Positions 5,368-59,819 of a stretch of 64,000 nt of DNA are shown here, in pieces. Made by a program: the position numbers and the translations under genes. The stretch is taken from NCBI RefSeq assembly GCF_963921235.1, contig NC_086097.1, forward strand, positions 96,660,001 through 96,724,000, read 5' to 3'. This DNA comes from Mobula hypostoma (taxonomy: Eukaryota). Below the pieces are notes generated by a model. It worked only from the letters and a program-made list of their open reading frames with translations. It was not told where the DNA came from and did no database searches. Every line of letters begins with the position of its first letter. The first letter of the stretch is position 1.

Positions 5368-6533
5368 AACAACACATACAAAATGCTGAAGGAAATCAGC
5401 GGGCCAGGCAATATCTATGGAAAAAAGTAGTCAATCGCTGCGGAAAGCAGAAAGTGGGGGGAGGGAAAGATGTGCTTGGTGGTGGGTTCCCGTTGGAGGT
5501 GGTGGAAGTTTTGGAGAATTACATGCTGGACGCGGAGACTGGAGAGGTGGTAGGTGAGGACAAAAGGAACCCTATCCCTGGTAGGGTGGCGGGAGGATGG
5601 GGTAAGAGTAGACGTGTGTGAAATGGAAGAGAATCAGTGGGAGGGACAAATGGACAAGGGAGTCGAGTAGGGAGCGATCTCTGTGGAAAGCAGAAAGTGG
5701 GGGGGGGAGATGATCAGTGGGGATGGACGACTGGACAAGGGATCGCTCCCTATGCGGCTCCTTTGTCCATTCGTCCCTCCCCACTGATCTCCCTCCAGGC
5801 ACTTATCCATTCTTGCAAGCAGAACAAGTGCTACACCTACCCCAACACCACCTCCCCCACTACCATCCAGGGCCCTAAACAATCCTTCCAAGTGGGGCGA
5901 CACTTCACCTGTAAGTCTGTTGGGGTCATTTACTGTGTTTGCTGCTCCTGGTTTGTCCTTCTGTACATTGGTGAGACCCAACGTAGACTGGGAAACTTCT
6001 TTACTGAGCATCTATAGTCTGTCCACCAGAACAAGCAGGATCTCTCAGTAGCCACCCATTTTAATTCCACTTCCCATTTCCATTCCAATATGTCCATCCA
6101 TGGCCTCCTCTACTTCGTGATGAGGCCACACTTAGGTTGGAGGAACAATACCTTGTATTCTATTTGGGTAGCCTCCAACCTGATGGCATGAACACCAATT
6201 TCTCAAACTTCCGGTAATGCCCTCCAACCTGCACCCCCCTACCCACTTCTCCATTTCTCATCCCCTTTCATCCCTCTCATCAATCAACTTCCCAGCTCTT
6301 TATTTCAGCCCTCCTCCTCCAGGTTTCACATATATCCTGGTAGTTCCCTCTCCCCTCCCCCCACCTTTTAAATCTATTCCTCAGCTTCTTTTCTCCAGTC
6401 CTGCTGAAGGGTTGCAGCCCAAAATGTTGACTGTACTTTTTTTTCCATAGATGCTGCCTGGCCTGCTGAGTTCCTCCAGCATTTTGTGTGTGTTGCTTGG
6501 GTTTCCAGGATCTGTAGATTTTCTCTCGTTTGT
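5368..6533 (+). mobile_element. Second Penelope-like insertion with inverted 5' part, nested in the older element
   Basis: + strand GIY-YIG (GVIYCVCCSWFVLLYIGETQRRLG) and terminal repeat at ~6390-6533; inverted segments at ~5368-5735. Confidence 0.8.
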
Positions 6534-7400
6534 GGCTTACCGGGTCAGATTTGTAAACCTTGGGAAGGAGGTAGAAATCAGCCGTCAGGTCCAGGATCTA
6601 TGAGGTTAGTGGCAATGAATGGGAGATCTTCAGTCGATGAGGTTGGAGATGGTGCAGGAAACAATGGTTTGATGCTGCTTAGTGTGCACCTTTACAAGGG
6701 GAAAGTAAAAAGAGGTTGTCCTGCCTCAGCAAGGTAAAGGTCAGTCCACCAGATTATAACAATACCATTCTTGTCTGCAGGTTTGATGGTGAAGTTGGGA
6801 TTGATGCAGACAGTGTGGAAGGCAATGTATTCTAACAGGGTGTTCAAATTGGAGAGAGGACTGCTGAACTGAGACAACAGATGTCTCGTCGGTAGTTAGA
6901 GATAAAAAGATCCAGGGCGGGCAGGAGACCAAAGTGGGATGTCCAGGGGGAGGGTTGAAGCTGCGAGAAGAGATTATTGGTGGTGGGTGGGGAATCCTTG
7001 TCTAAAAATAGGTGCAGAGATGGAGGCATCAGAAGAGTTCAGTGTCATGATGGTCGTCGAATTCACTGAGTGGGGGTGCAGGGGGCAAAAGTGAGGCCCT
7101 TACTGAGGACAGAACATATTGCCTTGGAGAGGGGTAGGTCAGAGGGGATGGGAGGATTGAGCTATTCAGGTAAAGTGGGGGAGATGGGGGCTCAGAGGAA
7201 GGGTGGATGAGGAGTAGATGGGAGCCTGAGAGACCTGGGGCTGGTGGGGAATAGTGGTGGAAGAAGGGGAGCCGTAGGACCCAGCAATAGTGAGAAAGGT
7301 CTTAGCCTGGAGGTGGCTGGGGCTGAAGTTGGAGCCAGAGCTGAAGGTGGCAGGCTTCACAGCCGACTGGAAGCTAGAGCTGAAATGGTGAGGCAAATCT
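6534..7400 (-). mobile_element. Penelope-like element, 5' continuation of the 3566-5367 copy
   Basis: Peptide NPNFTIKPADKNGIVIIWWTDLYLAEA, the IKPADKG motif typical of Penelope RT N-terminal regions. Confidence 0.8.
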
Positions 7401-7639
7401 ACCAGTTATCAACATGAACACGGGATACGCCATCAAGCCTCTGAATAAAGCTGTAGAGGAATGCAAGGAAAAAAAGTGAGATCCTCATGTCTTCAGGAAA
7501 GACATTCCGTGTCTTAAGAGAACTTTAGCAGAAATAGAAGTTGTCGAGAGCTGTTCAAGATTCTTAGAGGGTGGGCGGTAAGTAGCACCCTAATTTGAGG
7601 CACGAGACCTGACAGACGTGTCAACTCACTGCCATCATC

Positions 7640-9280
7640 AACAGGCATTCCCGGTTTGTGTTTTTTTAAATTTTAATTTAGCCCCATTAATGATGGATAA
7701 ATATGTATGATGCAATCTTCATGAAGCTGAAGGTGGTGAAGCCTTGAATTCTAATCCTGCCAAGAAACAGAAACTATAGAAAGTGCATTAATACAATGCT
7801 ACATACTTTGAGTATAGTTTTATTCCGTTCCCCGTCAGATCAGCAATGCCCCATGTGTGTTATTTGTAATACCGTACTGTAATACCTGAAAAGGCTACTT
7901 AAGGTATTACTCAGTTCCAGAAGATGAAAGAAGCATTTGAAAAGTGTTGCACACTCGAGTCATTTGCCAAGAAAGCTGAAAATAACCTTGATAGTGGTCT
8001 CATTGCTTCTGATAACATTCCTAAAATGATAGCAAAGTGTGGAAAATCTCATACAATTGGTGAAATATTAATAATGCCTGCTGTATCAGAAGTGCTCACC
8101 ATTGTTCTCGAATTGGATACCAGTACCTTATAATCAATTCCTCCAAGTAATAACTCTTCAGCTCATTGTATTGACGAAATGAGTGAAGACACCGAGTATC
8201 ATCTATGCAAAGCTACAAAAAATAGATCTTGGGATACAATTTGGGAATCAACCGTGTGAGACAATGGGGCATTGCTAATGTAAGGTTTATCAAAAATGGA
8301 AAAGTTCATGAAGAGATTCTCTTTGTAAAAAGTTGAAAACAAACATCAACGAAGAATCAATCTACAAACTCAAAATGAATATTAAGGATTGGAGCACCGT
8401 TTCCGACTGGTGCCATGCTGCTTTAGTGGCATTTATGAAAAAAGAAATTCCAAATCTGTTTGCAATCCATTGTGTAGTGTAATTCACCATCAACATATCA
8501 CAGCCAAAAACCTCAGGCAGTGAATTTTTTCAAGCATGACTTGTAAAATCTGCTATTAACAAAATTAAAGCTCATCCATTAAAAAGCGGAATATTTCGCC
8601 AGTTATGCTAAGATAATGATGGAGAGGCTGGCTGTCAAAAGGCTGCTGCTTAAAATGTTTCTTTGATCTTTTTGACATTGCGGTTGAACTTTTGCTCAAA
8701 GTCGACAAGAGCTTGGGAAACAAGATTGAACTTCTATGTGGAGATGTGGCATACCTAGAAGATCTGTATGACAAAAAAAAATGAACATACTAAATATGAA
8801 ACTGGAGGGTGAAAATTGCAATTTACTCCAGGCAAAAAGTACAGTGTCCACTTTAATAGAAAACTGGAAATATATAAGCAAAACATCGGGAGAAGAATGT
8901 TCTGTTTCCCTGCATGGTAAGTATGGCACTCTCTTTCACAGATGGTGATTTCCAAGAGTACTACTTACACCTGCAGTCACTGAAGAAGGATTTTCAAATA
9001 GATTCAAGGATTTGAACAACCTGGAAATTCTGGACTGGGTATTTAACCTACTTCTCTGTAAGGTGAAAGAACAGGAAGAGGGCTTGCAAGAAGAAATTAT
9101 GAAATTCAGAATGATGAAGATGCAAAACTGCTTTTCAAAAATGTTGGCTCCTGTGGTATGTGGCTACACTGTTATACAAAGTTTGCTAGACTTGGGAGAA
9201 GAGCCAGACTGCTCCTCATTGCTCCTACCTTGTTGAAAGAGGCTTCAGTGCAGTGAACCACATACTCAAAAAACTAAAAA
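7640..9280 (+). mobile_element. hAT (Buster/Charlie; SCAND3/ZBED8-like) transposase relic
   Basis: Peptide IAKCGKSHTIGEILIMPAV; fragments resembling AIHCV..H, WLSKG and a C-terminal ERGFS motif; multiple stops and frameshifts. Confidence 0.75.
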
Positions 9281-9289
9281 TGCTTGGAC

Positions 9290-10745
9290 ATTGTTATGTC
9301 TTGAAATTCAGCTACAAATTGGCAAATAAGAAGTTGTGGCCATCTCTGAAACTTGGCTAAAGGATGGCTGCCATTGGGAGCTGAATGTGCAATGATTTAC
9401 GGTATATCGGAAAGATAGGTTAGTAGGCAGAGGACGTGGTGTGGCTCTGTGTATAAAAAATAATATTAAATCATTGGAAAGAGATGACATAGGATTGGAA
9501 GGTGTAGAGTCTCTATGGGTTGAGTTAAGAAATGGCAAGGGTAAAAGGACCCTAGTGACAGTTGTATACTGGCCTCCAAACAGCAGGCGGGACGTGGATT
9601 ACAAATTACAGCAGCAGATAGAAAAAGCATGGCAGAAAGGCAATGTCATGATAATCGTTGGGAACTTTAACATGATTGGGAAAACCAGGTCAGTACTGGA
9701 CCTCAAGAGAGAGAATATGTAGAATGTCTAAGGGATGGCTTTTTAGAACAGCTTGTTGTTGAGCCCACAAAGGGATCGGCTGTGCTGGATTGGGTGTTGT
9801 GCAATGATCTGGAGGTGATACAAGAGCTTAATGTTAAAGAACCCTTAGGGAACAGTGTTATGATTGAGTTCACATTGATATTTGAGAGGGAAAAAGTAAA
9901 ATCCAATGTGTTGGTATTTCGGTAGGATAAAGGAAATTACAATGGCATGAGAGGGAAACGGGCCGAAGTTGACTGGAAAGGGACATTTGCAGGAAAGACG
10001 GCAGAGCAGCAATGGATGTGAGAAATGAGGGAAGTGCAAGACAAATATATTCCAAATAAGAAGAATTTTCAAAGGGAAGAAGGACACCACCATGGCTGAC
10101 AAGTGAAGTCAGAGCCAAAGTAAAAGCAAAAGAGAGGGCATACAAGGGAACCCAGAGCTAGTGGCAAGATAGAGGATTGGAGAGCTTTTAAAAACTTACA
10201 GAAGGAAACTAAGAGAGTCATTCAGAAAGAAAAAATGAACTATGAGAGGCAGCTGGCAGCTAATATCAAAGAAGATACTAAAAGCTTTTTTAAGTATATT
10301 AAGGGTAAAAGAGAGTTGAGGGTAGATATAGGACCAATACAAAATGACGCTGGCGATACTGTAATGAGAGATGCAGAGACGGCAGATGAACTGAATGCGT
10401 ATTTTGCATCAGTCTTCACAATAGAAGACATCTGCAGTATACCGGACATTCAAGAGTGTCAGGGAAGTGAAGTTTGTGCAGTGAAAATTACGACTGAGAA
10501 GGTGCTCAGACAAATCTCCTGGACCTGACGGAATGCACCCTTGGGTCCTGAAGGAAGTAGCTGAAGAGACTGCAGACGCATTAATGATGATCTTCCAAGA
10601 ATCAATAAGATTCTGGCATTGTACCAGATGACTGGAAAATTCCAAATGTTACTCCACTATTTAAGAAGGGTGGGAGGCAGCAGAAAGGAAACTATAGACC
10701 TGTTAGCCTGATCTACATCAGCTCCTATATCTTATGGTCTTATGT
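9290..10745 (+). mobile_element. CR1-clade LINE ORF2 fragment joined to a CR1 tail
   Basis: Peptides VAISETWL, VESLWVELRNGKG..YWPPNS, TKSFFKYIKGKR, ELNAYFASVFTIED; tail ctcctatatcttatggtcttatg. Confidence 0.9.
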
Positions 10746-12959
10746 ATGTGGATTCAAGACCACAAGATTTAGTAGCAGGATTAGGCCATTTGGCCCATCG
10801 CATCTGCTCCACTATTTCATCATAGCTGATCCAATCTTCCTCCCTGCCCCAATCTCCTGTGTAGAGTTTGCATGTTCCCACTGAAGGAATGTGAGTTTCC
10901 TCCCATGTCCCAAATATATGTGGGTCAATAGTAGATTAGTTGTCCAGTGCAAATGTTCTTAGTGTGTGGATGAGTGGAAGAAATTGTGGGGTGGAGATAA
11001 GAGGTTGACTATGGGTAAAATCAATGGGGAGTGGAATTGCCCTGTGATCTGGCATTGACTCCTTCTGCGTCTAAGCATACATGGAAAACTAGAAAGACAA
11101 CTTTGATTTCTGCTGCATTTGAAAATCTGGTCTAAGTGTCAAGACCACAAACAAGTGCAATTGGAGAATATTCACATTTGCAAGCTGGGATATGACCAAC
11201 TCTCCAGAAGGAGCGATTTTTGGTTAGCTGGAAAATATAGGTTTGAAATGTTATAATTCGCCATGAAACCATTCCCAAAATTCATAATTCTTTTGAGCTA
11301 TGGGATTGTTCGGTGTCATTTTATGGACATTTCTAACTAGAAATGTGGAGCAAACATAGGCTTCCACCTAACCTGTAATATACCTGCTATGGTAGTGTTT
11401 TTAGATTAGCTCCATCATTCCACTATTGTAGAGCAAGTCCTGCATTGGAGAATGATAAGACAGGGTCTGGTATTTCATTCCTAGAGCAGTAATTACCTGC
11501 TCTTCCATGCTAAATGGGAACAGCTAAAGCACATTTTGCCCTCATCACAATAGATACCTTCCATATTAACAAGAGCAGCCAACTTACGCTGTTTAAAAGC
11601 AGATAATCTCAAATTGGTTAATGCAGGAAGGGAGGGAATGAGAAACAAAGCGAACCGAAGAATGAAAAACATAGCTCCTTCGCTCATATACTGGGCTCCG
11701 AGTGATGGGGACAGAAGCCCAGCACTGAGTTTCTGTAGAGAGTGAAGGGACAACCTGCAGGGCAATGGTGAAAAGACAGGGGAAAATATCCCATTAAATA
11801 CTCAGCTATTGGAATATTCACCAACTTGCGGCTCTCCTCCGACATCACATTCTAGAAAGGGACGCTGAGAGAGTCTGGATTTTGTGTGGCAGCATGCCTC
11901 TGACCTCATGACTGTTCTGATGACAATGCTCATTAAATTCGAGTAGCAATAACGTGCAATCTACATCACCAGCGCTGCAGAGCTTTAGTTTGAGGAGTCA
12001 GCACCAGTTCCAGGGTACACACTGCATCTGCTCCTTTGCAAGTCGGCTGCGTTTCTGTGGTGTGCGGCTCTGGATTTTCTGAGTTTTGTGCGGTGGTTAG
12101 TATGGCTATTTTCTTTCTAGAATTGTTAGAACATTCTGCACTACCTAGGAAAATGCTGGCGCAGCTTGCTCTGTGGGATCTGGATGTTTGTACTTTTTAA
12201 ATCACATTTGATTTGTGTGAGTTGACATATTGTAGTGCTTATGATTGCAATGGGGGAGGGAGGTAGCACTTTGTTCTTTATGCGAACCACAGCACTTTAG
12301 TTTTGATGTATTGGGTATTGTAAGGAAAGAGGCTAATTAAAGAAGGCTCATGTTGTTCAATCCATTTTTATCATTCTTATGGGAAAGTCAAAGAAATGTT
12401 TAATGACATAGTAATGAGATACCTGAGTATAAGACCGAACAATAATCAACAGGATAAATATTAATATTTAAAATACACAGCCTGTCCCTAAGTGATTTTC
12501 ACAGAGTAACAGCTATGGATGGAAATTCTGAGAGACACCTGTAAATACAGACAAATGACAGAACCTGAATATCCTGTCAGTGCACCATTTCCCCCTGGGT
12601 CAATGCACATTACACTACTCTGGAATGTTTGCCCAGTAAATGTATTTTAAGAAAAACAAGAAAAACATGCAATTGCAGTGTGTGTTCTACTCAGAGTATC
12701 TGTTATAAAATATAGGAGCTCAGACAAGAGTGTTTATTTAATTCCACATTGACAGCCAAGAACTTGTGCCAAATGGTGTCTATAAAATATATGTACACAC
12801 CTGATGATGTCCTATGACAACACAAAATTTGTTTGAGAAACATAGAAAAACTACAATACAGGCCCTTCAGCCCACAATGCTGTGTTGAACATGTGCTTAC
12901 TTTAGAAATTACCTAGGGTTACCCATAGCCCTCTATTTTTCTAAGCATAAGTTTTGTAG

Positions 12960-13940
12960 CATAAGTACATAATATTACTATAAATTACAGAATAAATAGT
13001 GCAAAAGAAAAGGGTTCATGAGATGGATGGGAAGAAGCAGTTTTTGAATCATTGATTGCTGGTCTTGAGGCTCCTGTACCTCCTCCCTGATGGTAGTAAT
13101 GAGAAGAGGGGCATGTCTCAATGGTGAGGGTCACTAATGATGGATGCCATCTTCTCCAGGAACCATCTCTGGAAGATGTCCTTGGTGGTGGGGAAGTTTG
13201 TGTCTGTGACGTAGCAGGCCAAATCTACAACCCTCTGCAGCCAGTCAATGCAATCCTGTACACTGGAGCCTCTGCAATGCAAACAATCAGAATGCTCGCC
13301 ACTTTATATCTATAGTAATTTGCAAGAGTCTTTGGTGACACAGCAAATCTCTTCAACTCTTAATGAAGTTAAACTGCTGGTGTGCCTTCTTCATGATTGC
13401 ATCAATGTGTTGGGCTCAAGATAGATCCTCTGAGATATTGACAGCTAGGAATTTGAAGACACTCACCATTTCCATCACTGACCCTTAATGAGGACCAGTG
13501 CATATTCCCCTGAGTTCCCCTTTCTCGAGCCCACAATTAATTCCTTGGGCTTGCTGATGTTGAGTGTGAGGTTGTTGATGTGACCCTACTCAACCAACCA
13601 CTTTATCTCATTGCTGTACGCCTCCTCATTACTATCTGAAATTTTACAGATAGCAGTAGTATCATCTGCAAATTTATAGATGGTGCTTGAGGTGTGCTTA
13701 ACCATAAAGTCATGAGTGTAGAGAGAGTAGAGCTGTGGCTTAAGCACACATCCTTGAGTTGCATCTTGTCGATATCAGTGAGGAGGAAATATTATCATTG
13801 ATTCCTACTAACTCTGGTCTCCTGATGAGGAAGCTGAGGACCTGGTTTCAGGAGGTAGTACAGTTGCCCAGGTTTAGAAGCTTAGTGATGATGGGACTGA
13901 AGACCAAGCTATAAGCAATAAACAGTATCCTTACATACTT
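12960..13940 (-). mobile_element. Rex1/Babar-type LINE 3' fragment
   Basis: Similar to the other Rex1 copies in the window; YKFADDT-like segment near 13655-13680. Confidence 0.75.
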
Positions 13941-13944
13941 ACAG

Positions 13945-14905
13945 TAAAATATATTAAAAAGTAGTGCAAAAAGTGAGGTAGTTTTCATTGTCCATTCAGA
14001 AATCTGATGGCAGAGGGGACGAAGCTGTTCCTAAAAAAAAAAGAGGGTGTCTTCAGGCTCCTATAACTGTTCCTTGAAGGTAACAATGAAAAAAGAGCAT
14101 GTCCTGGATGCAGAAGGTCCTTAATGATGGACTCCAACTTCTTGAGGCACCGCCTTTCGAAGATATCCTCGATGATGGGGAGGATTGTGCCCAAGATGGG
14201 GCTGGCTAAGTTTATAATCCTCTACAAATGTTTCTGATCCTATACATTGTTGTCTCCATGCCAGAAGGTGATGCAACCATTCAAAATGGTCTCCACAGTA
14301 CATCTACAGAAACTTGCTAGAGTCTTTGGTGACATACCAAATCTCCTCAAAATCCTAATGAAATATAGCCACTGGCGTGCTTTCTTCATTCTGCAGCAAT
14401 ATGATGAGCCCATAATAGATCTTCAGAAACTTAAAGTGGCTCCCTCTTTCCACTGCTGACCTGACAACGAAGACTCGTCTGTGTTCTTCCAATCAGTTCC
14501 TTGGTATTAATAACATTGAGACAAGGTTGTTATTGTGACACCACTGAACCAACCTGTCTATCTCACTCCTCTATGCCTCCTCGTCACCATCTGAGATTTT
14601 GTCAATAGTTGTGTTGCTGCTGAATTTATAGATGGTGTTTGTGCTGTGCCTAGCACACAGTCATGAGTGCAGAGAGAGTAGCGTAGTAGGCTAAGCACAC
14701 CTCCTTGAGGTCTTCCTATATTAACCGTCAGTGAGGAGAGAACGTTATTTCCGATCCACACTTACTGTGGTCTCCTGATGAGGAAAATCAAGGATCCCGT
14801 TGCAGGGGGAGGTACAGAGGCCCAGGTTTTGAAGCTTGTTGATTAGCACTGATGGTGGATGAAGGTGTTGGAATTTGAGCTCTAATTAATAAACAACCTG
14901 ACATA
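13945..14905 (-). mobile_element. Rex1/Babar-type LINE 3' fragment (second adjacent copy)
   Basis: C-terminal peptide IIKDLLHPGHALFSLLPSRNSYRSLKT...FRNSFVPSAIRFLN; G.PQG..LS.L.YSL.THDCV. Confidence 0.82.
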
Positions 14906-15669
14906 GGTAGCAAGGATCCATCTCCACACTTCATTCTGATTCCAACGTATGTCTTCATTCAGTCCATTCAAAGCAGGCAACAAGTACGAGGAGACAATCA
15001 AAAGCTGACAGAGATTCATTTGAATGGCTCAGTTGGCTCAGACTGGGTAGTCAAGCTTGGCACTTGGAATTGATTCCAAAAGAGCGTGGTATCTACTATT
15101 TATAGATCAGAGTCCAACTTGTTTTATTATTTCAGGAAAAATCAGTGTAGACTGTTATTTGTTGCTGTGAATCATTGGAAATCAGTTCTCATTCCACTGA
15201 AGGGTCTTACATCAAAATGTCAATTGTCCATTTCACTCCACAGATGCTGCCTGACCCACTGAGTTTCCTTAAGCATTATTGCCCTAATTCAAAAACCTTT
15301 GAAATTCTCCCAGTCATTTTATCAGTCTACTTAGTATTTTGGAATACTAGTTCTTTCAAAAGAATCCAATATAATCCTTTTAATTTCCAGACAATTCCAT
15401 CTAATGCATATCAATCTCTACGTCAAAAGAAATGTAGTGGTTAATTTTTGACAGCAGTTGTATAGTACTTTGACCTGTTCACTGTGAACTGTGGAGTTAG
15501 AGCACATTTGACAAATACTTCTTACAATCACATGGTCATGAGTTGTTTCTGCTCCCTCCCCCAGTACTTTCTTGGCAACCCTGACGCATTTTAAATAAAT
15601 TAAAGCTGAAGGTGGAAGCAGTGAGAAGCTGATGCCTAGATGATAATTACTTAACGCAGGATATAGTGT

Positions 15670-16240
15670 GGAGCCAAATAATCAGAATTCAGTAGTAAGG
15701 AAGGCAAATGCAATGTTAGCACTCATTTCAAAAGGACTAGAACATAAAGCACGAATGTAATTGTGAGGCTTTGCAAGTCGTTGTTCAGACCGCATCTGGA
15801 AACATACCGAGCAATTTTGGGCTGAAACTATGAGGAGTGGTTGAGGTCCGTGGACCTATACTCAATATAGGTCAGAGAATGAGAGGAAATCTCTGATACC
15901 TATAGGCTGGGATAGAATTGACATGGACAAAATGTCCTATTAATAGGAGAGTCCTGGATTTGAGAGCATAGCCTTAGAATAAAGAGACATCCATTTCAAG
16001 CAGAGAAGAGGAATTTCTTCAGCCAGAGGGTGGTGAATCTGTGGATTTTATTTCCATAGAGGGCTGTGGAGGTCAAGTCATTGGGTGTATTTAAGGCAAG
16101 GTTGATTGGTAAGTGAGTTAAGGGATAGAGGTGGGAGAATGGAGTTGATTAAAAAAAAATCAGCAACTGCCATGATTGAATGGCAGAGAAGAACCAATGG
16201 GCCAAATGACTTAAATCTGCTCTGATATTTTATGGTCTTT
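15670..16240 (+). mobile_element. CR1 LINE 3' end, decayed
   Basis: aaggcaaatgcaatgttagc..., aatttcttcagccagagggtggtgaatctgtgg and a CR1-type tail. Confidence 0.75.
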
Positions 16241-16374
16241 AGTAGGAACCACTTCTTATGTTACCTGCACTCTCCCAGCAAATTGTGGTCAGGCAGGCCT
16301 GATCAGGTTCCAGAATACCGAGCTGGTGCATTTATTTGTAAAGTATCCACCTGGCTTAATCCAATCCAAGTCCG

Positions 16375-16515
16375 TGGACAAACAAGAGGAAAATCTGCAG
16401 ATGTTGGAAATCCAAGCAAAACATACAAAATGCTGGAGGAACTCAGAAGGTCAGGCAGCATCTATAGAAATGAATGAACAATCGACATTTCGGGCCAAGA
16501 GCCTTCTTCAGGACC
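16375..16515 (-). repeat. Penelope terminal repeat with partly decayed hammerhead (CUGAAGA...GAAAU GUC)
   Basis: aaatgctggaggaactcagaaggtcaggcagcatctat...gacatttcgggccaagagccttcttcaggac. Confidence 0.75.
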
Positions 16516-16544
16516 CACACCACCGAGTTCAAGAACAGTCATAA

Positions 16545-17270
16545 GGCAATACATTTTGACAAGTCAAACGGGGGTAGAATATAGACAATACATAGTAGGA
16601 TGGTAAGGAATGCTGTTGAATCCAAGGACTTTTGGATTCCAGTCCACTGTCACTTCAAGTGTCAATGCAGGTCAATAGGGTAGTGAAGGAGGCATAGGGC
16701 ATGCTTTCCGTCATAGGCTGGGACACAGGATATACTGAGATGTTTTGTTGCAATTTGTCAAAACACCAGTTAGACTCACTTGTAGTGTTGTACATAGTTC
16801 TGCTCGCCACACTACAGGAAAGATGTGATTATGCTGAAGAGAATGCAGAGGAAATTCACCACGATATTGCCTGAATTGAAGGACTTTAGTTATGAGCAGA
16901 AATGGATATGTCTGAAGCAAAGGAAGACTTCTATATAAAATTATCAGAGGAGGATAGGGTGGATGGATAGACATGTTTTTCTCCCTCCCATGGCTGGAGT
17001 ATTAAAGACAAGAGGGCAGAGGTTTAAAGTAAGGGGAAAGTATTTCAAAGGGGATTAGAGGAAAAGGTTTTTGTATTTAAAAAAAACAAATCAGAGTGAT
17101 TGATATCCGGAAGTCACTGCCAGCGGAGGCTGCTATAATCACCATGTACCTACAGATAGCTGAGTTGGTACTTAATTAGACAAGGCATATAAGGTTATGG
17201 ATACTAGAAATGGGCAAAAAGGTCACTTTGGATAAGGTCCTGTTTCTTCACTGTACAGCGCTATGATTCA
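16545..17270 (+). mobile_element. CR1 LINE 3' end (different subfamily), decayed
   Basis: CR1 C-terminal pattern (tgtacatagttctgctcgccacactacaggaaagatgtg...; acaagagggcagaggtttaaagtaagggg). Confidence 0.7.
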
Positions 17271-19219
17271 GTTTCAGAAGTAGCTGCCTGTAGTTTGTAG
17301 TTCTCCCCATTTCCATCCACAAAAATTGACTTACTGAGCCTGCACTTGGGAGATTCAATGTTAGGTCCCTTCTCCAACACGTGTTGCAGTTACAGATCTT
17401 TCAAAATCCTTGAGGTAAAAACACCCCAGGCTGATATTTTTAACCCATTTTTGTCATGCCAATTCCACTTTGAGGTGTCGTGGTCAACTGCAATGTACTC
17501 AAAGACGATGTTGGGATACTGCTGTAGGTTAACTCACAATATTAAGGGGCACAGGAGTTTCAAACAAGGTTCTTGCTACATCATCAAAGTTGCATGCCTA
17601 ACATAGAGAGAACAAAAGGTGTATAGAATCATAGAGAGATACAGAACAACAGAATAGAAACAAACCTCTCAGCCCACGGATCCACAATGACCAATCCCCC
17701 CCCCACCCCACCCAATTTATACTTTTGTTGGCAGGGCAGGTTAAGAAAACAGTTCAAGATTCTGGGCTTTATAAATAAGAGCACAGAACATAATAGCAAG
17801 CAATTTTGATAAAATCAAGGGCCTTTGATAAAATACTGGCTCAATCACCATGAGTAGTGAGCCTGAACATCTGACTGAACATTTGCCCCCCACTTACTAC
17901 TTTGTTGTGGCCACAACGGGTAGACTGCTGAGTTTGCAGCTATTTCTACACTGCTAAGCCATTATCAGGCTGTGTACAGGTTACATCACCAACTGCTGAC
18001 TGCCCAAGCTAAGAATGTGAATTGCTTTTGGAGCCAGACATTCAGCTGAAATTCAGTGTCCAAAGCAGGCTTTGGTTACCAGTTCTTGCATCCACCTCAA
18101 GCCTCATTTCTTGCCAAAATACCCAACAACCTAGCTGAGGAAAAAGATGATTGTTGTCTCTTCTTGGTATCACAAGCCTTTAGAGTTAATGAAGGTGATG
18201 TTATTAATATACAGTCCACTCTGAATGGATTAACTAGCTGCCCACTTCCAACCAACTGGCACTTCATCTACCATTCTAAATACAGATGCTTTCCACTGCC
18301 CATTTGATACGGCTGCCATAGGTATCATCATGAAAATGAAAGTAACAACTCACCAAGGTTGTTAACAGAGCACAGCCCAAAAGCTGAAATCTCTACCATG
18401 GGCAAAGGATGCAAAGACATCACTATCTGCAAATATGCTAGAAACCGTACACTATCCTGATGGAAATTTATTGCTACTGCTACACCATCATTTTGTCCAT
18501 ATCTTGGCTTGAAATTGGGTCTAACCAATGGCAGGCTCAAGTGACTGAAGTTCAAGGAGAGTGAGTTGGGCAGTAGATGCTGGTCTTGTCAACAATGCCC
18601 ACATTTCATTCATAAAGAAAAATACCATAGTACAGAAAGATATTAGGGTTTTACAGTGAGTGGAGAAAAGAATTAATGACATGAGGAATTGCAGGAAACA
18701 GGATTTAGGATTGTGAACAGAAAGTTGGGGTTCTTCTTAAAGCAGTAATGGAACACAAAAGAATTATTTAAAATCATAACACATTTAAGAATAAGGAACA
18801 AAGTCATAGATTGAAGGTAATTGGCAAAATACAAAGGCAAGATGAGATTATTTTTATGTAATGAGCTGCTGTATCAGAAAGGACTGGCTGGATAGGTGGT
18901 GGAAGCATTTTAAAAATAATTTACACAGAGAATTTGGATAAACACACTTGGAGGATTTGGAGTTTGATAGGGTGAGATAACCGGAATAATTCTCTGGAAG
19001 AACTGGCTAGAAATAAGCCAGGTTGCCTGCAGCACTCATTTAATACTTTGAAGCCAGTGACTGATAAGGTTCAGTCTACTGACCTTCAGAAGTCAGCTAC
19101 CATGGGGATAAGATACACAGTTCAAACATGATGAAAGCAGTATACATAATGACATACAGACACTAGGGAGCGATTACAACACTAAATTAATGAGTAATCA
19201 GCAAACAATTCAAGCCAAA

Positions 19220-19445
19220 GGTAGGAACAGCTTCTTCCACTCTGCCATCTGATTTCTGAATGGACATTCAACCCATGAACACTACCTCACTACTTCATTA
19301 TTTCTATTTTTGGCACTAATTATTTAACTATTTGAGATGTATGTATACTGTAATTCAGTTTTTTGCTCTATTATTAGGTATTGCATTGTACTGCTGCCAC
19401 AAAGTTAACATAATTATGTATGCCAGTCATATTAAACCTGATTTT
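19220..19445 (+). repeat. Rex1-type LINE 3' tail
   Basis: aggaacagcttcttccactctgccatctgatttctgaatggaca...attaaacctgatt. Confidence 0.7.
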
Positions 19446-20429
19446 GAAAGGAAACCCACCCAGATGAATTGCAGAGTACAAATCTAGTGCCCCTTGTTAC
19501 AAACTATGACTGAACTGTGATTGTTCTCCTAAAAGCAAAGGGATTAAATGTAATTGAGATATTCAAAGATCAGCAAAGGATTTGATAAGAGAGCACACAA
19601 CGTGAAACTATGCATTGTCAGAAGGAAAATTAGTTATTGTAGAAAGGCTTTGAAAAAATTTTGGGATTTAGTGCTTGGAAAGGATGGTGGAAGTAGATTC
19701 AATAAATGAGGGATTTGGGTAATACATGGAAGGAAAAATATACAGGATTATGGAAAAAGATAAGGCTACTGGGATTTATTGGATAATGCTAATAAAGCAG
19801 CAGTGATACATCATTAATGTGAACCAGAGGTAGGAAAATATTCACTTTCAATTGAATCACTTGGGCCTGGGTTTCTACTTTTCTGATCAGCCTGTATGTT
19901 AAATTTTATGACATGCTTTGCTATTTTTTCATCCATCTATCTCATTACTTGCTTGAATATTTCAGTCATGCAGTCTTCAAATTAAACTGGCAAGCTGGAT
20001 TGAAAATTCACTGTGTGGGTAGGGATTTTAGTTTGTGGTGGGCTTTAGTGGAGTTTTGTATCAGGAGCTCCCTTTTATGATATGCATCCAGTTGTGATGT
20101 CGGGAGGAAATCTTGTTGCTGATTAGTTGCGTGACAAACTTGGTGCATTGTTGTCTGGAATTATGCCTGCATTGGCTCATAAGTAGAAGCCAAGTCAACA
20201 TGTTTGTTTACAGAATTGTTCGTGGAAAACTACGCTTCTAGGAATTCTCTTGCATGCTGTACATTTACTTGCACCATGACTTTAACTGATGCCTGGTTGA
20301 ATTTGAGCCTCTCTCGATCTTCACATCGCAACTGAGTTTCCGAAAAGACGACCAATCAGCCGAATGACAAGTATATAATGGCCAAGCATTTGGACGACAC
20401 ACAATTAACAGCGTACTGATGATGGCTCC

Positions 20430-20570
20430 CTTCCTTTCCAGTTCCGAAAAAGAGTCTTGGCCCAAAACATTGAATTCAGTTTCATAGATGCTACCTGACC
20501 TGCTGAATTTCTGTGGGATTTTCTGTGTTGCTTTGGGTTTCTAGCATCTGCAGAATTTCTCATGTTCATG
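20430..20570 (+). repeat. Penelope terminal repeat, decayed hammerhead
   Basis: catagatgctacctgacctgctgaatttc...ccagcatctgcag-like tail. Confidence 0.65.
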
Positions 20571-20985
20571 ATCTAAAGTGATGACAGAGTAATATCTCAA
20601 TGCCTCTCCTGAAAGCTGAATTGACAAACTCATAGCTTGATATGTGACTGATACATTCAGATCGTAAATGCTTTGGGTGGTGACCCTCGTGTTGTTGGCA
20701 CAGGGCTCTTCATTCTATCCCCGAAGCAGCACTATACTTGGCTATAACTTCTTTACAGTTTAAGAACCTGTTGATACTCATTGTTCATGCCAACACATCA
20801 GGGGTGGCTGCTTGGAGCAGAAGGTGAACCAGAACCCACTGAACTGTACATTGTTCAAAGGGAGGGCAGACAGGATAGAAATCTGCCACCTGATTGAGAT
20901 AGAAAGGATTATGGATACAAGAATTTGAAGCAACTAACTCCAAACTGCTGGAAGAACTCATCAGGTCAGGCAGACTTTATAGAGG

Positions 20986-21697
20986 TGTAAGGGGTTTCTT
21001 CTTTCATGTTACTGCGAAGGTTAACAAAATTGCTTCTTTGTTATGTTATAACTAAAATGGCTTTTCTGTAATAATAACTGCGATGTAAGGAGTTCTCTCT
21101 CTCTCTCTCTCTGCTTGTTTGGGTTATATTATTGATAAGAGAGAGAACGAACCAATTGGGATAGATGTTATTCTTTCTTGTGTGTCTGTAAGCTATTTTT
21201 GAGGCAGAAAGCGCAATGGGGACAGAGAGAGGAGATGTGATGCTGTGACCCTGGGCGGCGGGACCGACCCTGAGCGGGAGTCCGAGACCCAGGGTCTTCG
21301 GCGAGGAGAAGAGACGAAGACAGACTCGTGTGGAGCGTCTGGTCAACCACCGTGGCTGGTCCCAGGTGGCGGGTCGAGGGGGTCGGAGGGGATCGAATGG
21401 TGGAAAGACGACTCCATTAATCGAGCTCCGACTGTTGTGCACAAGTGGTTGAACTTTGATAAGTCTAGCGCCTTTTATTTTCCTTTTATATTTTATCTCT
21501 ATTAATTACACAGTTCCAGTAAGATCTATAAAGTGTAATCATTTAATCGCATATGGTGTATTGTCTGTTATTCGGCGGGGTGGGGTACAATCGCACAGCA
21601 CCCACACAAACTTGATTACCCATTCTGGTGGGGCCAAAGGCTGCTCCCCCTAGACGAAAGCGAGTTGAGCGAGTCTAAGGCTTACTAGGGGGCTACA
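20986..21697. mobile_element. Solo LTR (712 bp), inserted into a decayed Penelope terminal repeat
   Basis: TGTA...TACA termini; 4-bp flanks GAGG/GAAG (one mismatch); CpG-rich. The flanks rejoin into a continuous Penelope-type repeat (~20920-20985 plus 21698-21820). Confidence 0.75.
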
Positions 21698-21894
21698 GAA
21701 GTAAAGGGACAGTCAGTGTTTCAGGTCAAGGTCCTGATTCAGAACTGGTGCAGGTCCTGGTGGAAGGCATCAACCATCATCTCTTTAGCTGCATGACCTA
21801 AGGCCTTCCAGCAGTTTGGTTTATTTGCCCCCACCTGATACTGAATATGCTTTTACTTATTAATCAGCAAGCTTTATCACCACCAATTCACTTA

Positions 21895-21917
21895 CTGTAA
21901 AATTTCTATTTCCATAG
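21895..21917 (+). promoter_or_regulatory. Candidate 3' splice site for the BORG-like coding exon (exon would start at 21918)
   Basis: Pyrimidine tract followed by TAG|G, 98 nt before the ATG. Confidence 0.65.
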
Positions 21918-22015
21918 GATCGGGTTACCAGACCACAACTTCTCCAGGATATTCATTATCTTTTTCAAGACCCTTCGTAATAATTAAACTTTTGAAACCT
22001 ACTGGTCGTTACAAA

Positions 22016-22615
22016 ATGTCTGTCAAATCGCCCATCTATCTCAAAACTGTGTTGACTAAAAAGGGCAAGAAGCCAAAACTGCGTGAAGTCCTATCAGCAG
22101 ACATGATCAGCCCACCTCTGGGAGATTTTCACCACAAATTGCACATTGGCAGGAGAGGAGAGGGTGATACGTTTGGAGATCTGTCCTTCCTACAAGGCCA
22201 GGATGACCTTCTGTCCTCCATGAGTACATCGAAAGATCCAAGGGACGTGGCACCCCCTAAACCCCCTCGACTACACCTAGGAGAGCCCAATGACACAACT
22301 GCTGTCAATTCTACACAGGCAACCTCTGAGTCTCCAGATAACCAACCACCAACTCTTTACTCACCCTCCGTACAATACCACCTGCTGGAGGCATCTGAGG
22401 AAGCCCCACCAGATGACAAGCAGATAGATGACAAAGACCAGCAACGAACTGAAGGTGAAGGAGGATGGGAGTGCTCAGCTCAGAGAGGAATGGATGACTC
22501 TCATTCAAGCCCTTCTGAATATATGTTTCAATTTGAATTGGATTTGGGGCCTTCGATACTGGAAGATGTTCTCAAAATAATGGATAATCACAAATCCATA
22601 ACATCGCAGCAGTAA
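22016..22615 (+). CDS. CDC42 effector protein (BORG/CDC42EP2/3-like), 199 aa, single coding exon; probable positional ortholog of C15orf62
   Basis: Intact [13 protein letters not shown]...[31 protein letters not shown] (CRIB, 22106-22150)[11 protein letters not shown], then [10 protein letters not shown] and [20 protein letters not shown] has A at -3. Splice acceptor tttctatttccatAG at 21916-21917 lies ~100 nt upstream, as is typical of BORG genes. Confidence 0.93.
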
Positions 22616-24046
22616 CGCTACACTGACTGCTTGACTTTAAGATGGTGAATTAAAAGTCTTCGGATATTGAACACAATAGCAACAATTTGCCTTAGGCAAC
22701 CAAACCTATCCAAGGAGAACAAATTAATAAATAGTGATTGAAATTCTGATTAAATATATAGATATGATTGACTCCTTAGACTCATCTGCAATGAGATTTG
22801 CAAAGCAGGATTTCAGCATTGTATACTGAGCACACTTTGATTCCTCCTCCAGTTATCGTCTTCATTAAAGTAGCTGGAAGTATGGTGACATAGCAACAGA
22901 GACACAGAAGTAAAACACTTCAACAGAATTTTTTTTCATCTTCTAAATAAAGTCTAACCAACAGAAAGACTTAAATCCACAGTTTCATTCAAAGATGAAA
23001 TAGAGTAGGGAAAAAGACATGCCAAATTGGAATTGCATACAAAGCACTTCAAAAAATTAGGTTCAGCCATGGAGTTAGCACAGTGCAGAGAAAACTTTAC
23101 CTTCTATATTCGAAGCGTATTGCTTACTGATGTCATCACACCTGCCATAATTAAATAGTGCTCAAATTCCTCTGTTTTCCTTCATATTACTTAACATTAT
23201 TTCAGTCCTGTTCTAATAGTTTGGTGAAATAGGTTGAAAGGCCTCCAGTTCCTATATTCCAGAGCCAATTATAGCCCCCCTCAAAGTTGCGTAAATAACA
23301 ATGTGGCTTATACCATACTTCCCTTTAAAAAAAAGTTAATATTCCATTAAACCAATGCTCCAAAGGCAAAAGGGAAAACAACAGGAACACCAGGATTCAG
23401 AAAATAATGATACTCACTTCAGAAAAGGCACACAAAAGATGTACTTTTAATATATTTAAGTACTAATGATAAGAGCTGCACCAGTAACAAAAGGGTGCCA
23501 ATGAGTTAATGGGCTACTGTAAGTTACCTATTAACACAGGCAGTAGCAGAATAAAAACACTTAATGAGCAGGTGAGAGGAATAAATTGCAGTGTTACAAG
23601 GAAATGAGGGAATGGGAATGAGACTGATAGAATTGTTCTATTGGTAGCTGACATGGATCTGTGTCATAATAAATAAATATTTTCTCAAATATTGCAAAGT
23701 TTGCTGCTGAAATATTGTAGAACTGATGGTGAAATTAAAACTAGTCCACACCTTGCTCCACATGTCCAGTTATAGATTTAGATACACTGCCTACCAAAGC
23801 ACCTGCCTAGTACCCTGGGGACCCTGATCCTTTCTATAGCGCACACAGGACCTCTAGTGGTAGAAGAGCTGTCATGGTAGCAGATAGCTCAGTCCTGCAT
23901 TGTTTCTCATTCCAACTCTGTCCTCAAGACATGCACAAACTCCCTCCTCTTCTCACATTATTTATTATTACATTTTTCAGAGGTTAATTTAAAGATTTGA
24001 ATCTGTATTAAATATCACTATAATACTATGTAAAAATGGTGATTCA

Positions 24047-24052
24047 AATAAA
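24047..24052 (+). terminator. Candidate distal polyadenylation signal (AATAAA) of the BORG-like gene
   Basis: AATAAA ending an AT-rich, apparently repeat-free ~1.45 kb stretch after the stop codon. Alternative AATAAA sites include 22726 and 22946. Confidence 0.45.
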
Positions 24053-24439
24053 CGTAAAAAAATTCAAGCTTTTATCGTGCAAAGTCAATTATTTTTCCAC
24101 ACCAAAGTCGACAGAGGCAAGGGAGATGCAGGTGATGATATGGTGATGACAAAGTTGAGGTTATTAGTCTAGAAATACAGGATACCATGTGTTCTCTGAA
24201 TTAACAATGCTTAATCAAAATGTTGGATCCAAAGCTCTTCTAACAATGCTACACTTTCCTAGCCCTGTTCAATTGCAGAAGTCTTGAAACTTTGAGTCCA
24301 CAACCTTCAGACCGACTTGTCGACATTGAATCTGTGGTCCCCTTGACCTGAAGCACAAATTTTCCTTCTGCACCAAGCTCAGGTATACTGTATACAGCAC
24401 ATACAATTTCAGTGTGCCTCATGCATACAGTATGAATTC

Positions 24440-24679
24440 AGCCAGAGACTCATTCCACCGAGATGCAACACAGAGCGTCATAGGAAGTCATTCCTGCCTG
24501 TGGCCATCAAACTTTACAACTCCTCCCTTGGAGGGTCAGACACCCTGAGCCAATAGGCTGGTCCTGGACTTATTTCCTGGCATAATTTACATATTACTAT
24601 TTAACTATTTATGGTGCAACTGTAACGAAAACCAATTTCCCCCGGGATCAATAAAGTATGACTGTGACTATGACTATGA
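24440..24679 (+). mobile_element. Rex1-type LINE extreme 3' end with (TATGAC)n-like tail
   Basis: Open frame SQRLIPPRCNTERHRKSFLPVAIKLYNSS; ends ggatcaataaagtatgactgtgactatgactatga. Confidence 0.75.
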
Positions 24680-25040
24680 TGAACCAACAGTACTACTGGA
24701 GATGCAGCCTTTATCATATTGATGAGGAATTCTACCCTTGAACTAATTGTGAAATTTTCTGTTCCTCTTAATCCACTGAATTTGCTGTGATATCAGGCAC
24801 CAAGTCTATGTTACTAAAGCACTTCTCAGATATTCAGGTGCATGTAGATCCTTACAAAGTTTTCCTCCTTTTTATAGGCCAGAAGTAAATGAGGAGCATT
24901 CTGAGAGTTTTCAAATCAGAATCTAATTGTATAACAGCCTGAAATATCCATCAGTTACTTTGTGGCTCAGGATGTTTGCCCTGGTGTTGGTGAACTGGTG
25001 TATTCCAGACCTTAATTGCTCACTAAATTCCACATATCAA

Positions 25041-41451: not shown

Positions 41452-41598
41452 CTGTAACAAACTGTGTGTGCCCGTCTCCACAGAAGCTGATGAGACATTT
41501 GGTGTGTTGTTCTTGGTGTTTACAGGGGGTTGTCCTTCCAGCCAGGAAATCTTCAAGGGGTTACTTATTAAGCCAGTCTCATTCTTGAGGGCCAGCTC
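41452..41598 (-). CDS. DNAJC17: DNAJC17 coding exon (exon 10 equivalent): ELALKNETGLISNPLKISWLEGQPPVNTKNNTPNVSSASVETGTHSLLQ
   Basis: 147 nt; acceptor ttcattttgactAG, donor GTagga; NPLKISWLEGQP motif. The donor position is less certain because the 3' half of the exon is poorly conserved. Confidence 0.88.
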
Positions 41599-43583: not shown

Positions 43584-43664
43584 AGCGGTCCTGGTTGAGG
43601 AAAATTCCACTATAGCACTACCTTTCTTTTTACTGGATATGAGCAGGTTCAAAACTTCCCCATA
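43584..43664 (-). CDS. DNAJC17: DNAJC17 coding exon (exon 9 equivalent), RRM: YGEVLNLLISSKKKGSAIVEFSSTRTA
   Basis: 81 nt; acceptor cttcttcttacAG, donor GTgagt; phase 0 to 0; RNP1-like KGSAIVEF. Confidence 0.95.
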
Positions 43665-44012
43665 CTGTAAGAAGAAGCAGCTTCAGTATCTGTTAACAAG
43701 GTTAACTAACAAGGTTAACTTGAGCATAGAACATCAGCTTCTTCCACTTCAGGGATTTACAGTATTTAACCTTCACTACAAAATGCTAAGCCACTGGAGA
43801 AAGGATGCATGCTAACCAGCTGAGCGTCTTTATATAGCAGTTTCAATGCCCAACAGTATGACGGATTTGGATTGATGTTTTTAACTAAAGCATGCATGCT
43901 ATCATGTTAAATTTATGTTGATCTACATTTCTCTCTACTTTCTGCTGTCATTTATTTACCCTCCTCTGCACAACAGTTTCTCTTACAAAAACAAAAAAAC
44001 AGAACTTTAGGT

Positions 44013-44200
44013 AACACACACAAAATGCTGGTGGAACGCAGCAGGCCAGGCAGCATCTTATAGGAAGTAGTACAGTCGACGTTTCGGGCTGAGACCCTTC
44101 GTCAGGACTAACTGAGTGAAGAGATAGAAAGAGATTTGAAAGTGGGAGGGGGAGGGGGAGATCCGAAGTGATAGGAGAAGACAGGAGGGGGAGGTGGAGC
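44013..44200 (-). repeat. Penelope terminal repeat (young) containing an intact hammerhead
   Basis: aacacacacaaaatgctggtggaacgcagcaggccaggcagcatc...cagtcgacgtttcgggctgagacccttcgtcaggact; CpGs retained. Confidence 0.82.
44073..44110 (-). ncRNA. Minimal type-I hammerhead ribozyme, intact core, sense to DNAJC17 pre-mRNA
   Basis: Reverse complement reads UAGUC CUGACGA A GGG-UCUCAG-CCC GAAAC GUC^ GACUG. Confidence 0.78.
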
Positions 44201-45751
44201 TGGGGGAAGGGCAGTGTTGGGTAGTGTGAACTGTGTTGGTCAATTAACTTATCAGTTTTTGATCTGTTAAATTACTATCCTCATGCTCAGTATCTCTCTC
44301 TTTCATTCTCATCTTGAGTATGCAACCATTTCTCCCGAGACCGATAAACACCCCAAAATATTTACATCTTTTACAGAAACAAATGGTGGAAAAACTATGA
44401 TTTGCTAACAGGAAGCTGATAAACTTGGGTATATGAAATGATTATCCACATTTTTCACTTACAAGCAACTTCCAGATGAGAAGAGTCAAGCTACTTTGGG
44501 TTAGATTGATATACTTTGCATCTTACTCCCAATCTCCCTCTACCTCCCCTGCTTGCTTTTCAGCTTGTTGCCATCTTCCTCTCTTCCGTGATCAGTTCCT
44601 TAAGACGAGTAACAGCTGTTGTCTTATTTGACATGGGCAACTATAAATCTACAGGAACATACCGTACATTTCAGAGACGTGAATTGGCTTCTACTTGCGG
44701 GTAACTCCTACAATGTGATTTTACTCTGGTGCTCTCTTGTTTGAAGAGGAAGGAAAGGATCTTTGTCAGCAGGAAGCTGACAAAAACAAAGTTCTAAGTA
44801 CATTTATTGTCAAAAATTGTATAAAGTATGTATACTACATACTGTACAACATTGAGATTCGTCTCCTTAGTCAGCCACAAAACAAAGAAACCCAATAGGA
44901 CACATTAAAAAAAACAAAGAACAACATACCCTCAATGTGCAGAAAAAAAATTGTGCAAACAATAAAAGTAAGCAAATAACATTCAGAACTGAAGTTCACA
45001 AAAGTGAGTTCACAGCCACGAAGCCAGTCATCACTGCAGCCAATCCAGGAGCCCGCTAGTTCAACGCAGAGACAAGTAAACCTCACAGAGTAGTGAGCTG
45101 AATTGGTTGATCCCTCACCTCCACCCTGACACCCTAACCTTTACGATCTGGTGCGATGCGTAAAAACAATGAATCTGACAACTGCTGGACTATGCCAATA
45201 CAAGATTAAAAGAGTCTTAATTTTCCCCTTAAATCTGTTTCAAAACCTGCTTTGCTCAGTCAACAGGAATCTGTGCTATAATGCTGACCTAAAATGGCAG
45301 AACGGTCACTGACATGGATGAGGAATCCAGAAGTTATGATCTCAAATCTGGGCAAGTTGCAATATCCAATTGAATTAACTAATTGTCCACGATTTGGCAT
45401 CAAGAAAAATAGCACTTAGCATGCCACGTTATTCAAAAAGAAAGAAAAAATGATTAGTATTTTTTAATGCAGAAAAGACACCAGCTAAATCTACATCACA
45501 GTATCATTTAGAAAGGTAGGCTGATGGGGCTGAATGATGAGAATTTGTATGAGCAAGATTGGGGGGAAGGGGATGGAACAAGGGCTTAATAGTCTGTAGG
45601 TATTTTGTAACTGCAGATGAGTAATGTAATTTCAAAATAATCTCACTTCCCTAAGTATTTCCCATCATAACTGACACACTTGGATATATACCAATTGGTA
45701 GAAGCATGGGAAGTACTCTTCATTTGATGGCTCCACTGCAGAAGAACTTAC

Positions 45752-45829
45752 CTTTCGCAAGATTGATAGGAGAAATTCATGAGAATAACCACCATTTGAT
45801 TCATCGTCCTTGTTACACTTCCATCTGAG
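45752..45829 (-). CDS. DNAJC17: DNAJC17 coding exon (exon 8 equivalent), start of RRM: LRWKCNKDDESNGGYSHEFLLSILRK
   Basis: 78 nt; acceptor gcaatatatAG, donor GTaagt; phase 0 to 0. Matches [26 protein letters not shown]. Confidence 0.94.
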
Positions 45830-45841
45830 CTATATATTGCC

Positions 45842-46022
45842 AGGGAGGGTGGAAAGGGACGGGGGTTGGGGAAGGTGGGAGGGGGAAGGTGGGAGGGGGG
45901 AAGGGGAGGGGGGAAGAGGAAGAGGAAGGGGGGAGGAAGGGGGAGGAAGGGGGAGGAAGGGGGAAGAAGGGGGAAGAAGGGGGGAAGGGGGGAAGAAGGG
46001 GAAGAAGGGGGGAAGGTGTGGG
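45842..46022 (+). repeat. G/A-rich low-complexity tract (GGGGGAGGAA/GGGGGAAGAA units)
   Basis: About 180 nt almost entirely purine on +, with many G4-G6 runs. Confidence 0.9.
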
Positions 46023-46748
46023 CAAAGATAAAATATTTTCATGATTTCTAAGGAATTAAGGAAAAATGCTGACAACTTAAAAGGCAAACCAAAAGAAATT
46101 ATGAAAATAGTTAAAAACCAGAAATCAAAGGGAAAGCAATTAGTGAAATAAGTATACTTCATATCTTCTAAGGTGTAGGAGCCATGTACCTACTTTCTGT
46201 TTGTCTGCATTTTGCATTGAGTGTTTATTTTGGGTAATTAGTCACGTAGATTGATGCATGGTAGAAGTGAAGAGTATAGTTACGTATTCATGCTTTCTCT
46301 TTAGGTTAGTTTTTAGTCTGGTTAGTGGTTAAAGGCACCCAGAATGGCATTTTTATTGTCCACTGCTTTGCTTAGTTATGCTTCATTTATTGTTTAACTA
46401 AGTTTAAGAACGCTTAGCTTAAGTACATTTGAATACGCTTAGATTGTTTATTTCATTATATTGTTAGTTTTATCATTACAAGATAGATTGTCTTTGCTGG
46501 TTTCGCAATAAAGATCAAACGTACTTTCTTTGACTTTAGAACTTTATTATTGATGGAAAGTACGTCATACAGAGTCAACACCCCCGTGCTTAGCCTCTGA
46601 GAGGTTTTCAGTTGTTTTAAAGTAGCCGCTACAGTGGGGATTGCATTACGAGTTTCCCAAACCTTCCATAGCTCACAGTAACTCTGAACCTTGCAGGAAA
46701 TCAATTTCACAAGACATTAACAAAAGTCAGCATGAGAACTAGACTTAC

Positions 46749-46798
46749 TTTCAGCTTGGGGGTTGGTTTGTTTTTGGAGTCTGTTTGGACAGCAAAAC
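46749..46798 (-). CDS. DNAJC17: DNAJC17 coding exon (exon 7 equivalent): (G)FAVQTDSKNKPTPKLK
   Basis: 50 nt; acceptor ttcttttccttccAG, donor GTaagt; phase 1 to 0; ends in the conserved TPKLK. Confidence 0.9.
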
Positions 46799-48510: not shown

Positions 48511-48551
48511 GGCAGGTGTCTTTACCTACAATATCACAGGTGCAAACTTAC

Positions 48552-59749: not shown

Positions 59750-59819
59750 TACTAGTCTAGTAGAAAGCACTTTGAAAATTGGGTGGGGCAGAGAGTTCTC
59801 TACCCTGACTGATGCAATC

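Follow-up and report, generated by a model that had tools for sequence, protein, structure and literature searches.

A BORG-family gene nested antisense in the last DNAJC17 intron of the ray Mobula hypostoma, a likely CRIB-bearing ortholog of human C15orf62

The stretch of Mobula hypostoma DNA analysed here (64,000 nucleotides; contig NC_086097.1, positions 96,660,001 to 96,724,000; hereafter the window) carries a single-exon coding sequence for a BORG/CDC42EP-family protein on the plus strand, inside DNAJC17, which is read from the minus strand. The features are given below in window positions, with the identities of the motifs calculated across 14 chondrichthyan orthologs.

21916..21917, plus strand: AG splice acceptor after a pyrimidine tract (sequence; contig of probable-RNA run X2)
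21918..24365, plus strand: likely last exon, with a short 5' UTR, the CDS and a 3' UTR of ~1.6-1.75 kb containing several AATAAA (contigs of X1 and X2)
22016..22615, plus strand: single-exon CDS of the 199-aa BORG/CDC42EP-family protein (ORF translation, Pfam, protein matches)
22016..22102, plus strand: basic N-terminal region, aa 1-29 (72% identity)
22103..22150, plus strand: CRIB motif, aa 30-45 (Pfam PBD; 84% identity)
22151..22213, plus strand: BH1 extension after the CRIB, aa 46-66 (78% identity; aligns with all BORG rows)
22250..22279, plus strand: PPKPPRLHL proline-basic motif, aa 79-88 (95% identity)
22523..22588, plus strand: BH3/BD3 septin-binding motif, aa 170-191 (73% identity; ends in the only predicted helix)
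41452..41598, minus strand: DNAJC17 exon 10, 5' boundary of the host intron (protein mapping)
43584-61739, minus strand: DNAJC17 exons 3-9 (protein mapping)
About -19600 to -19725 (C1:96640394-96640275), minus strand: DNAJC17 terminal exon, exon 11 (only match)

The 199-aa frame is uninterrupted, and its translation confirmed every motif named in the original prediction, namely the basic region, CRIB, PPKPPRLHL and BH3. The assignment to the BORG family was also borne out, with the Pfam families BORG_CEP (E = 6e-12, 47 bits, cut-off 25) and PBD (E = 1e-6, 29 bits, cut-off 21.3) both scoring above cut-off. These two are the only Pfam families in the protein, which has no enzymatic domain, and a Pfam search of 16 rows of the same short type added no further family except for one match at E = 0.26 in 1 row. 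The best matches are 14 named chondrichthyan proteins, ranging from stingray (91% identity; named ‘cdc42 effector protein 2-like’) to chimaera (50%). The CRIB, preceded by the basic region and directly followed by BH1, has the core residues including the Ile-Ser pair, and I31, S32, P34, D37, F38, H40, H43 and G45 are invariant in 16 of 16 short-type rows, as are the BH3 residues D176, L177, G178, P179, S180, L182, L186 and M189 in 22 of 22 BORG rows. The variable middle of the protein is only 36% identical across the 14 orthologs. Judged by this concentration of sequence conservation on the motifs, the gene is a live one; a chance ORF or a pseudogene at 22016-22615 was rejected. The predicted structure (pTM 0.15, mean pLDDT 56) has a sole helix, at 182-193 in BH3, and the protein is predicted to be a small, mostly disordered scaffold. 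A PDB sequence search with the ray protein returned 0 matches.

As originally claimed, the KNAISLP-type block is missing, being absent from 15 of 15 chondrichthyan rows, and because of this the PPKPPRLHL motif lies only 49 aa from the CRIB. Five of the six other BORG genes of the ray contain the block, the sixth being the CDC42EP5-type gene, and from this distribution we equate the block with BH2. The short forms of sturgeons and teleosts carry a basic-Ser-x-Pro motif after PPKPPR that is absent from the ray protein; we take it to resemble a phosphorylation or 14-3-3 site.

The gene is likely transcribed and spliced. The exon starts at 21918, no ATG occurs before 22016, and the start codon has an A at -3. 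Four runs, all of the same study and only guessed to be RNA, were compared with 18.5 kb of the window (6500-25000). A 2496-nt contig from X2 matched 21916-24173 (depth 16), and its first 238 nt lay outside the compared piece, as expected of a spliced plus-strand mRNA. The X1 contig covers 21644-24365 at depth 18, and the contigs listed on unique pieces of the intron reach depths of 2-6, compared with 18 (X1) and 16 (X2) at the gene. The host intron (6500-21900 and 24400-25000) is rich in high-copy interspersed repeats with very high contig depth, including a repeat at ~21000-21600, just upstream of the acceptor, into which the X1, X3 and X4 contigs run.

To place the gene relative to its host, the M. 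hypostoma DNAJC17 protein was mapped on 264 kb around the window. All 11 coding segments were located, all on the minus strand, and the segment 41598-41455(-) agrees with the NCBI M. hypostoma DNAJC17 at 100% identity. The terminal exon had been invisible to the original prediction because it lies ~19.6 kb to the left of the window; in the 264 kb mapped, there is no match to it between 24100 and 41450, which places the BORG gene antisense within the last coding intron (~61 kb), as had been proposed, in the one genome in which nesting was checked, that of this ray. A non-nested arrangement was rejected on the position of the same exon. The predicted GCHFR-DNAJC17-ZFYVE19 synteny also holds in the ray, where the order is RMDN, GCHFR, DNAJC17 with the nested BORG gene, and ZFYVE19. 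The GCHFR exons (C1 96.627-96.637 Mb, plus strand) are tail-to-tail with DNAJC17, ZFYVE19 (FYVE and ANCHR-type B-box exons, plus strand) lies head-to-head just past DNAJC17 exon 1, and an RMDN exon is found at C1 96.32 Mb on the minus strand, 0.36 Mb to the left of the BORG gene. This is the gene set of human 15q15.1, where GCHFR is also placed.

The ray genome contains seven BORG loci in all, this gene and six others, so that separate CDC42EP1-5-type loci do exist elsewhere in the genome, a point that had been suggested for checking for CDC42EP2/3/5. The tree and named anchors assign an EP3-type gene to C2, an EP2-type to C82, a zgc:154093-type to C40, an EP1-type to C45 and an EP4-type to C68, with the present gene on C1; the BORG gene on C80 is probably EP5-type by its sequence features, the tree placing it only on the EP4/EP5 side. 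All three RMDN loci found, a count in which RMDN1 was not picked up, sit head-to-head with a BORG gene, at distances of 0.10 (C40), 0.24 (C2) and 0.36 Mb (C1), an arrangement with a rough chance probability of ~4e-9. In addition, three of five EHD hits fall on C1, C2 and C82, where 2.7-8.2 Mb separate them from the BORG genes, with no EHD hit on C40, which carries the zgc-type gene. The RMDN-BORG pairs and the EHD genes match the pattern of whole-genome-duplication paralogs, and we infer that this gene, CDC42EP2, CDC42EP3 and the zgc:154093-type gene are likely a genome-duplication quartet. The lack of an EHD hit on C40 and the distance of the PP1-inhibitor hit on C1, 7.6 Mb away, were counted against the duplication reading. 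A search for Sprouty domains, weak and set aside, placed hits at distances of 21 Mb on C1 and 11.5 Mb on C40, with none on C2 or C82.

The protein falls in the same major clade as EP2 and EP3 (100/99), which upholds the claim that it is a CDC42EP2/3-type paralog. In a mixture-model tree of 52 rows, all short forms cluster together (83/87), separately from EP2 (96/99), EP3 (97/91) and zgc (83/96), and in an LG+G4 tree of 31 rows, with 21 long-branched or redundant rows left out, those of sharks and of bony fishes did not come out as one clade (20% of bootstraps). AU tests on these 31 rows rejected the chondrichthyan gene as a duplicate of EP3 (p = 0.0002), EP2 (p = 0.005) or zgc (p = 0.02). By these tests and the separate short group, the protein is not placed firmly inside CDC42EP2/3/5; nor is it a 1:1 ortholog of CDC42EP2 or CDC42EP3, both of which have their own loci (C82 and C2) and AU p-values of 0.005 and 0.0002, with the BH2-type block being absent from the ray gene. 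A ray-specific duplicate was rejected as well, given the AU tests and the conservation across fishes.

With CDC42EP2/BORG1 and CDC42EP3/BORG2 the ray gene shares ~39-44% protein identity, the basic N-terminus, CRIB-BH1, the C-terminal BH3 and the single coding exon, and PPKPPRL is common to the ray gene, EP2 and ray EP3; it differs from both in having no KNAISLP block, in its antisense position within DNAJC17 and in forming its own branch. The best-scoring paralog is the zgc:154093-type BORG, which is also head-to-head with RMDN but is longer (220-350 aa), keeps a KNAISLP-type block and forms a separate clade. Members of this type (C40:3074322-3075050 in the ray), which falls outside CDC42EP1-5, occur in sharks, bony fish, coelacanth, lungfish, amphibians, turtles and lizards, with no mammalian member among the named hits inspected. 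CDC42EP5/BORG3 is likewise without the BH2-type block, according to a passage of PMC5134998 and as seen in the ray EP5-type gene, but in the tree it belongs with EP1 and EP4, and PPKPPRL is absent from it, so its loss of the block was likely independent. Ray CDC42EP3 (C2:132395825-132396583) keeps PPKPPRLH, which has been lost in echidna CDC42EP3 and other bony-vertebrate EP3-type representatives.

The CRIB-bearing short form is not special to this ray but spans cartilaginous and bony fishes, being found in sharks, chimaera, coelacanth, sturgeon and teleosts. A CRIB followed by PPKPPR within 70 aa, with no KNAISLP block, characterizes 15 of 150 listed representatives (the best 150 of 262 hits). 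Thirteen of these are named: 11 come from jawed fishes (seven from teleosts, two sturgeon entries, and one each from sawfish and coelacanth), and the others are a hagfish protein and an amphioxus kinase, with no tetrapod among them; the two unnamed ones group with teleosts. The short forms share a spacing of 45-55 aa between CRIB and PPKPPR. A goose protein with short spacing was not counted in the short clade, being CDC42EP2-type by sequence and name, and those amphibian and reptile proteins that were inspected, drawn from the 120 best of 1034 hits, are long and zgc-type. A barn owl gene is named CUNH15orf62 in a table of PMC11799826. The original prediction had placed the loss of the CRIB in the mammalian lineage, which is probably too late given the bird gene name and the lack of a tetrapod short form among the listed matches. 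Argued from this absence and this name, the data suggest decay of the CRIB on the tetrapod or amniote stem, before mammals.

Human C15orf62, the mouse version of which we take to be Gm14137, presumably lies antisense in the last DNAJC17 intron, and we assume that it keeps two motifs (APPKPPRL and F.VDLG.SLLEEVL) and has no recognizable CRIB. Like the ray gene, it overlaps DNAJC17 beside ZFYVE19: individual table rows and passages assign one human interval to both DNAJC17 and C15orf62 (row ICR_898, PMC9665137), describe a 42-kb segment holding DNAJC17, C15orf62 and ZFYVE19 (PMC6759945) and list RMDN3 at the same 15q15.1 locus (PMC13558399). Overlap with DNAJC17 within an RMDN3-GCHFR-DNAJC17-ZFYVE19 block was thus found on the ray side, with the human side taken from these passages. 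On the basis of position and the table rows, the ray gene is likely orthologous to C15orf62.

A less likely history is that the nested BORG of the ray, though real, was lost in tetrapods, and that C15orf62 is an ORF without relation to it, or one of recent origin, within the same intron; this is held to be unlikely. The lack of a tetrapod intermediate among the listed matches (best 150 of 262) and of any C15orf62 protein in the protein searches or the DNA scan would fit such a history, but the host gene and neighbours are the same in ray and human, and the motifs presumed for C15orf62 match two of those conserved in the ray gene. Moreover, the blank searches are weak: a post-CRIB shark query gave 13 hits from among 33 candidates, without the name C15orf62 and with the coelacanth ortholog itself reaching only E 1.2, and the profile search had no C15orf62 among the 150 of 262 hits listed, down to E 1e-11. 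Also weak are an ESM Atlas search (PF00786 skipped) without C15orf62, a two-motif DNA pattern with 0 matches in metagenome contigs, and a scan of related loci in which none of 9 had DNAJC17 exons. In three ohnolog-paper supplements (PMC13450315, PMC8040251 and PMC4504502) neither C15orf62 nor CDC42EP appears, and the control RMDN3 is likewise absent from the two in which it was sought, so that these supplements carry no information on the point.

Slightly less improbable, though still a minority view, is that the coelacanth and ray-finned short BORGs lost KNAISLP independently and lie elsewhere, so that only the chondrichthyan gene is nested and the timing of the CRIB loss is unsettled. The support for the short clade is moderate (83/87), the clade splits under LG+G4, and the one teleost-type contig, at 2 kb, is too short to show neighbours; against this, the spacing between CRIB and PPKPPR is shared, and a zgc-type gene exists in coelacanth and sturgeons as well, which makes the short form of these fishes a further paralog. 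Very little speaks for insertion into the intron of a retrocopy or lineage-specific duplicate derived from CDC42EP2 or CDC42EP3: its single coding exon and the ‘cdc42 effector protein 2/3-like’ names of its relatives would suit this origin, but the EP2-, EP3- and zgc-type genes are likewise single open frames, the X2 contig points to a spliced 5' exon, orthologs extend down to chimaera, the AU tests reject the placement, and the RMDN-BORG pairing recurs on three chromosomes.

Our preferred reading, with a probability of roughly 0.75, is that of an intact BORG gene nested antisense in the last DNAJC17 intron, likely transcribed and spliced, which likely arose by whole-genome duplication as the fourth copy in the CDC42EP2/CDC42EP3 group, is likely orthologous to amniote C15orf62, and encodes a predicted disordered adaptor between GTP-Cdc42/TC10 and septin filaments. 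In characterized BORGs, as described in passages of PMC5134998, GTP-Cdc42/TC10 is bound by the CRIB and its extension, which thereby position the protein; septin binding requires BH3, which also suffices for it; and BH2, a block with no known role, is absent only in EP5. Passages of PMC12158496 and PMC5134998 further report that Cdc42 binding depends on the Ile-Ser pair, mutation of which abolishes it, and that isolated BD3 lowers ciliogenesis (PMC12158496). The actin-binding element described in PMC11952830 is the N-terminal basic-CRIB-BH1 unit of EP3. By analogy, the CRIB-BH1 unit of the ray protein would bind active Cdc42/TC10 and position the protein, BH3 would bind SEPT6/7 and bundle septins, and the basic N-terminus, a putative counterpart of the F-actin-binding N-terminus of CDC42EP3 in PMC11952830, would touch F-actin. 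Since all elements except the BH2-type block are kept, the ray protein is most likely a Cdc42-positioned septin/actin adaptor.

Historically, the KNAISLP block would have been lost early, the gene would have stayed in the DNAJC17 intron, and decay of the CRIB on the tetrapod or amniote stem would have left C15orf62. Should C15orf62 be a descendant with BH3 but no CRIB, as its presumed motifs suggest, its action on septins would be free of GTPase control. More tentatively, and with slightly less than even odds, jawed vertebrates may have started with seven BORG genes rather than five, C15orf62 being a sixth surviving member that shed its CRIB on the tetrapod/amniote stem and kept PPKPPRL and BH3, a GTPase-independent septin bundler or competitor equivalent to a natural isolated-BD3 construct, with the ray gene representing the regulated ancestral state.

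The ray gene is a real further member of the known BORG family and likely the complete ortholog of a human orphan gene. Automated PANTHER/GO annotation presumably already gives C15orf62 BORG-type terms; if this link holds, the family relationship is known to databases, where fish members are already annotated ‘cdc42 effector protein 2/3-like’, and the new part is the history of the locus. No publication tying C15orf62 to BORGs was found in a search that was thin on subscription journals; the 25 publications listed as naming C15orf62 do not carry it in title or abstract, other passages mention it only in lists, and the one publication that contains both C15orf62 and CDC42EP gives them in unrelated gene lists. 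The possible database links limit the surprise, as does the mechanism of the ray protein, which is that of an ordinary BORG. The orphan human ORF would gain a family, an ancestry and a candidate function, septin binding without Cdc42 control, and a comparison from ray through coelacanth to amniotes would offer a natural series of an effector losing its GTPase input. The picture of five BORGs is corrected, the ray having seven, including the zgc:154093-type outside CDC42EP1-5.

BORG genes are said to be vertebrate-only in a passage of PMC5134998; BORG-like proteins were found here outside vertebrates, for example a named Ciona protein. In amphioxus, an Ack-related tyrosine kinase (XP_019623600.1) contains, at residues ~500-680 behind the kinase domain, the whole BORG cassette including CRIB-BH1, and scores 98-110 bits against a BORG-only profile. 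This cassette may point to a common ancestry for BORGs and Ack-like kinases or to a septin-binding kinase, although a fused gene model may also account for it.
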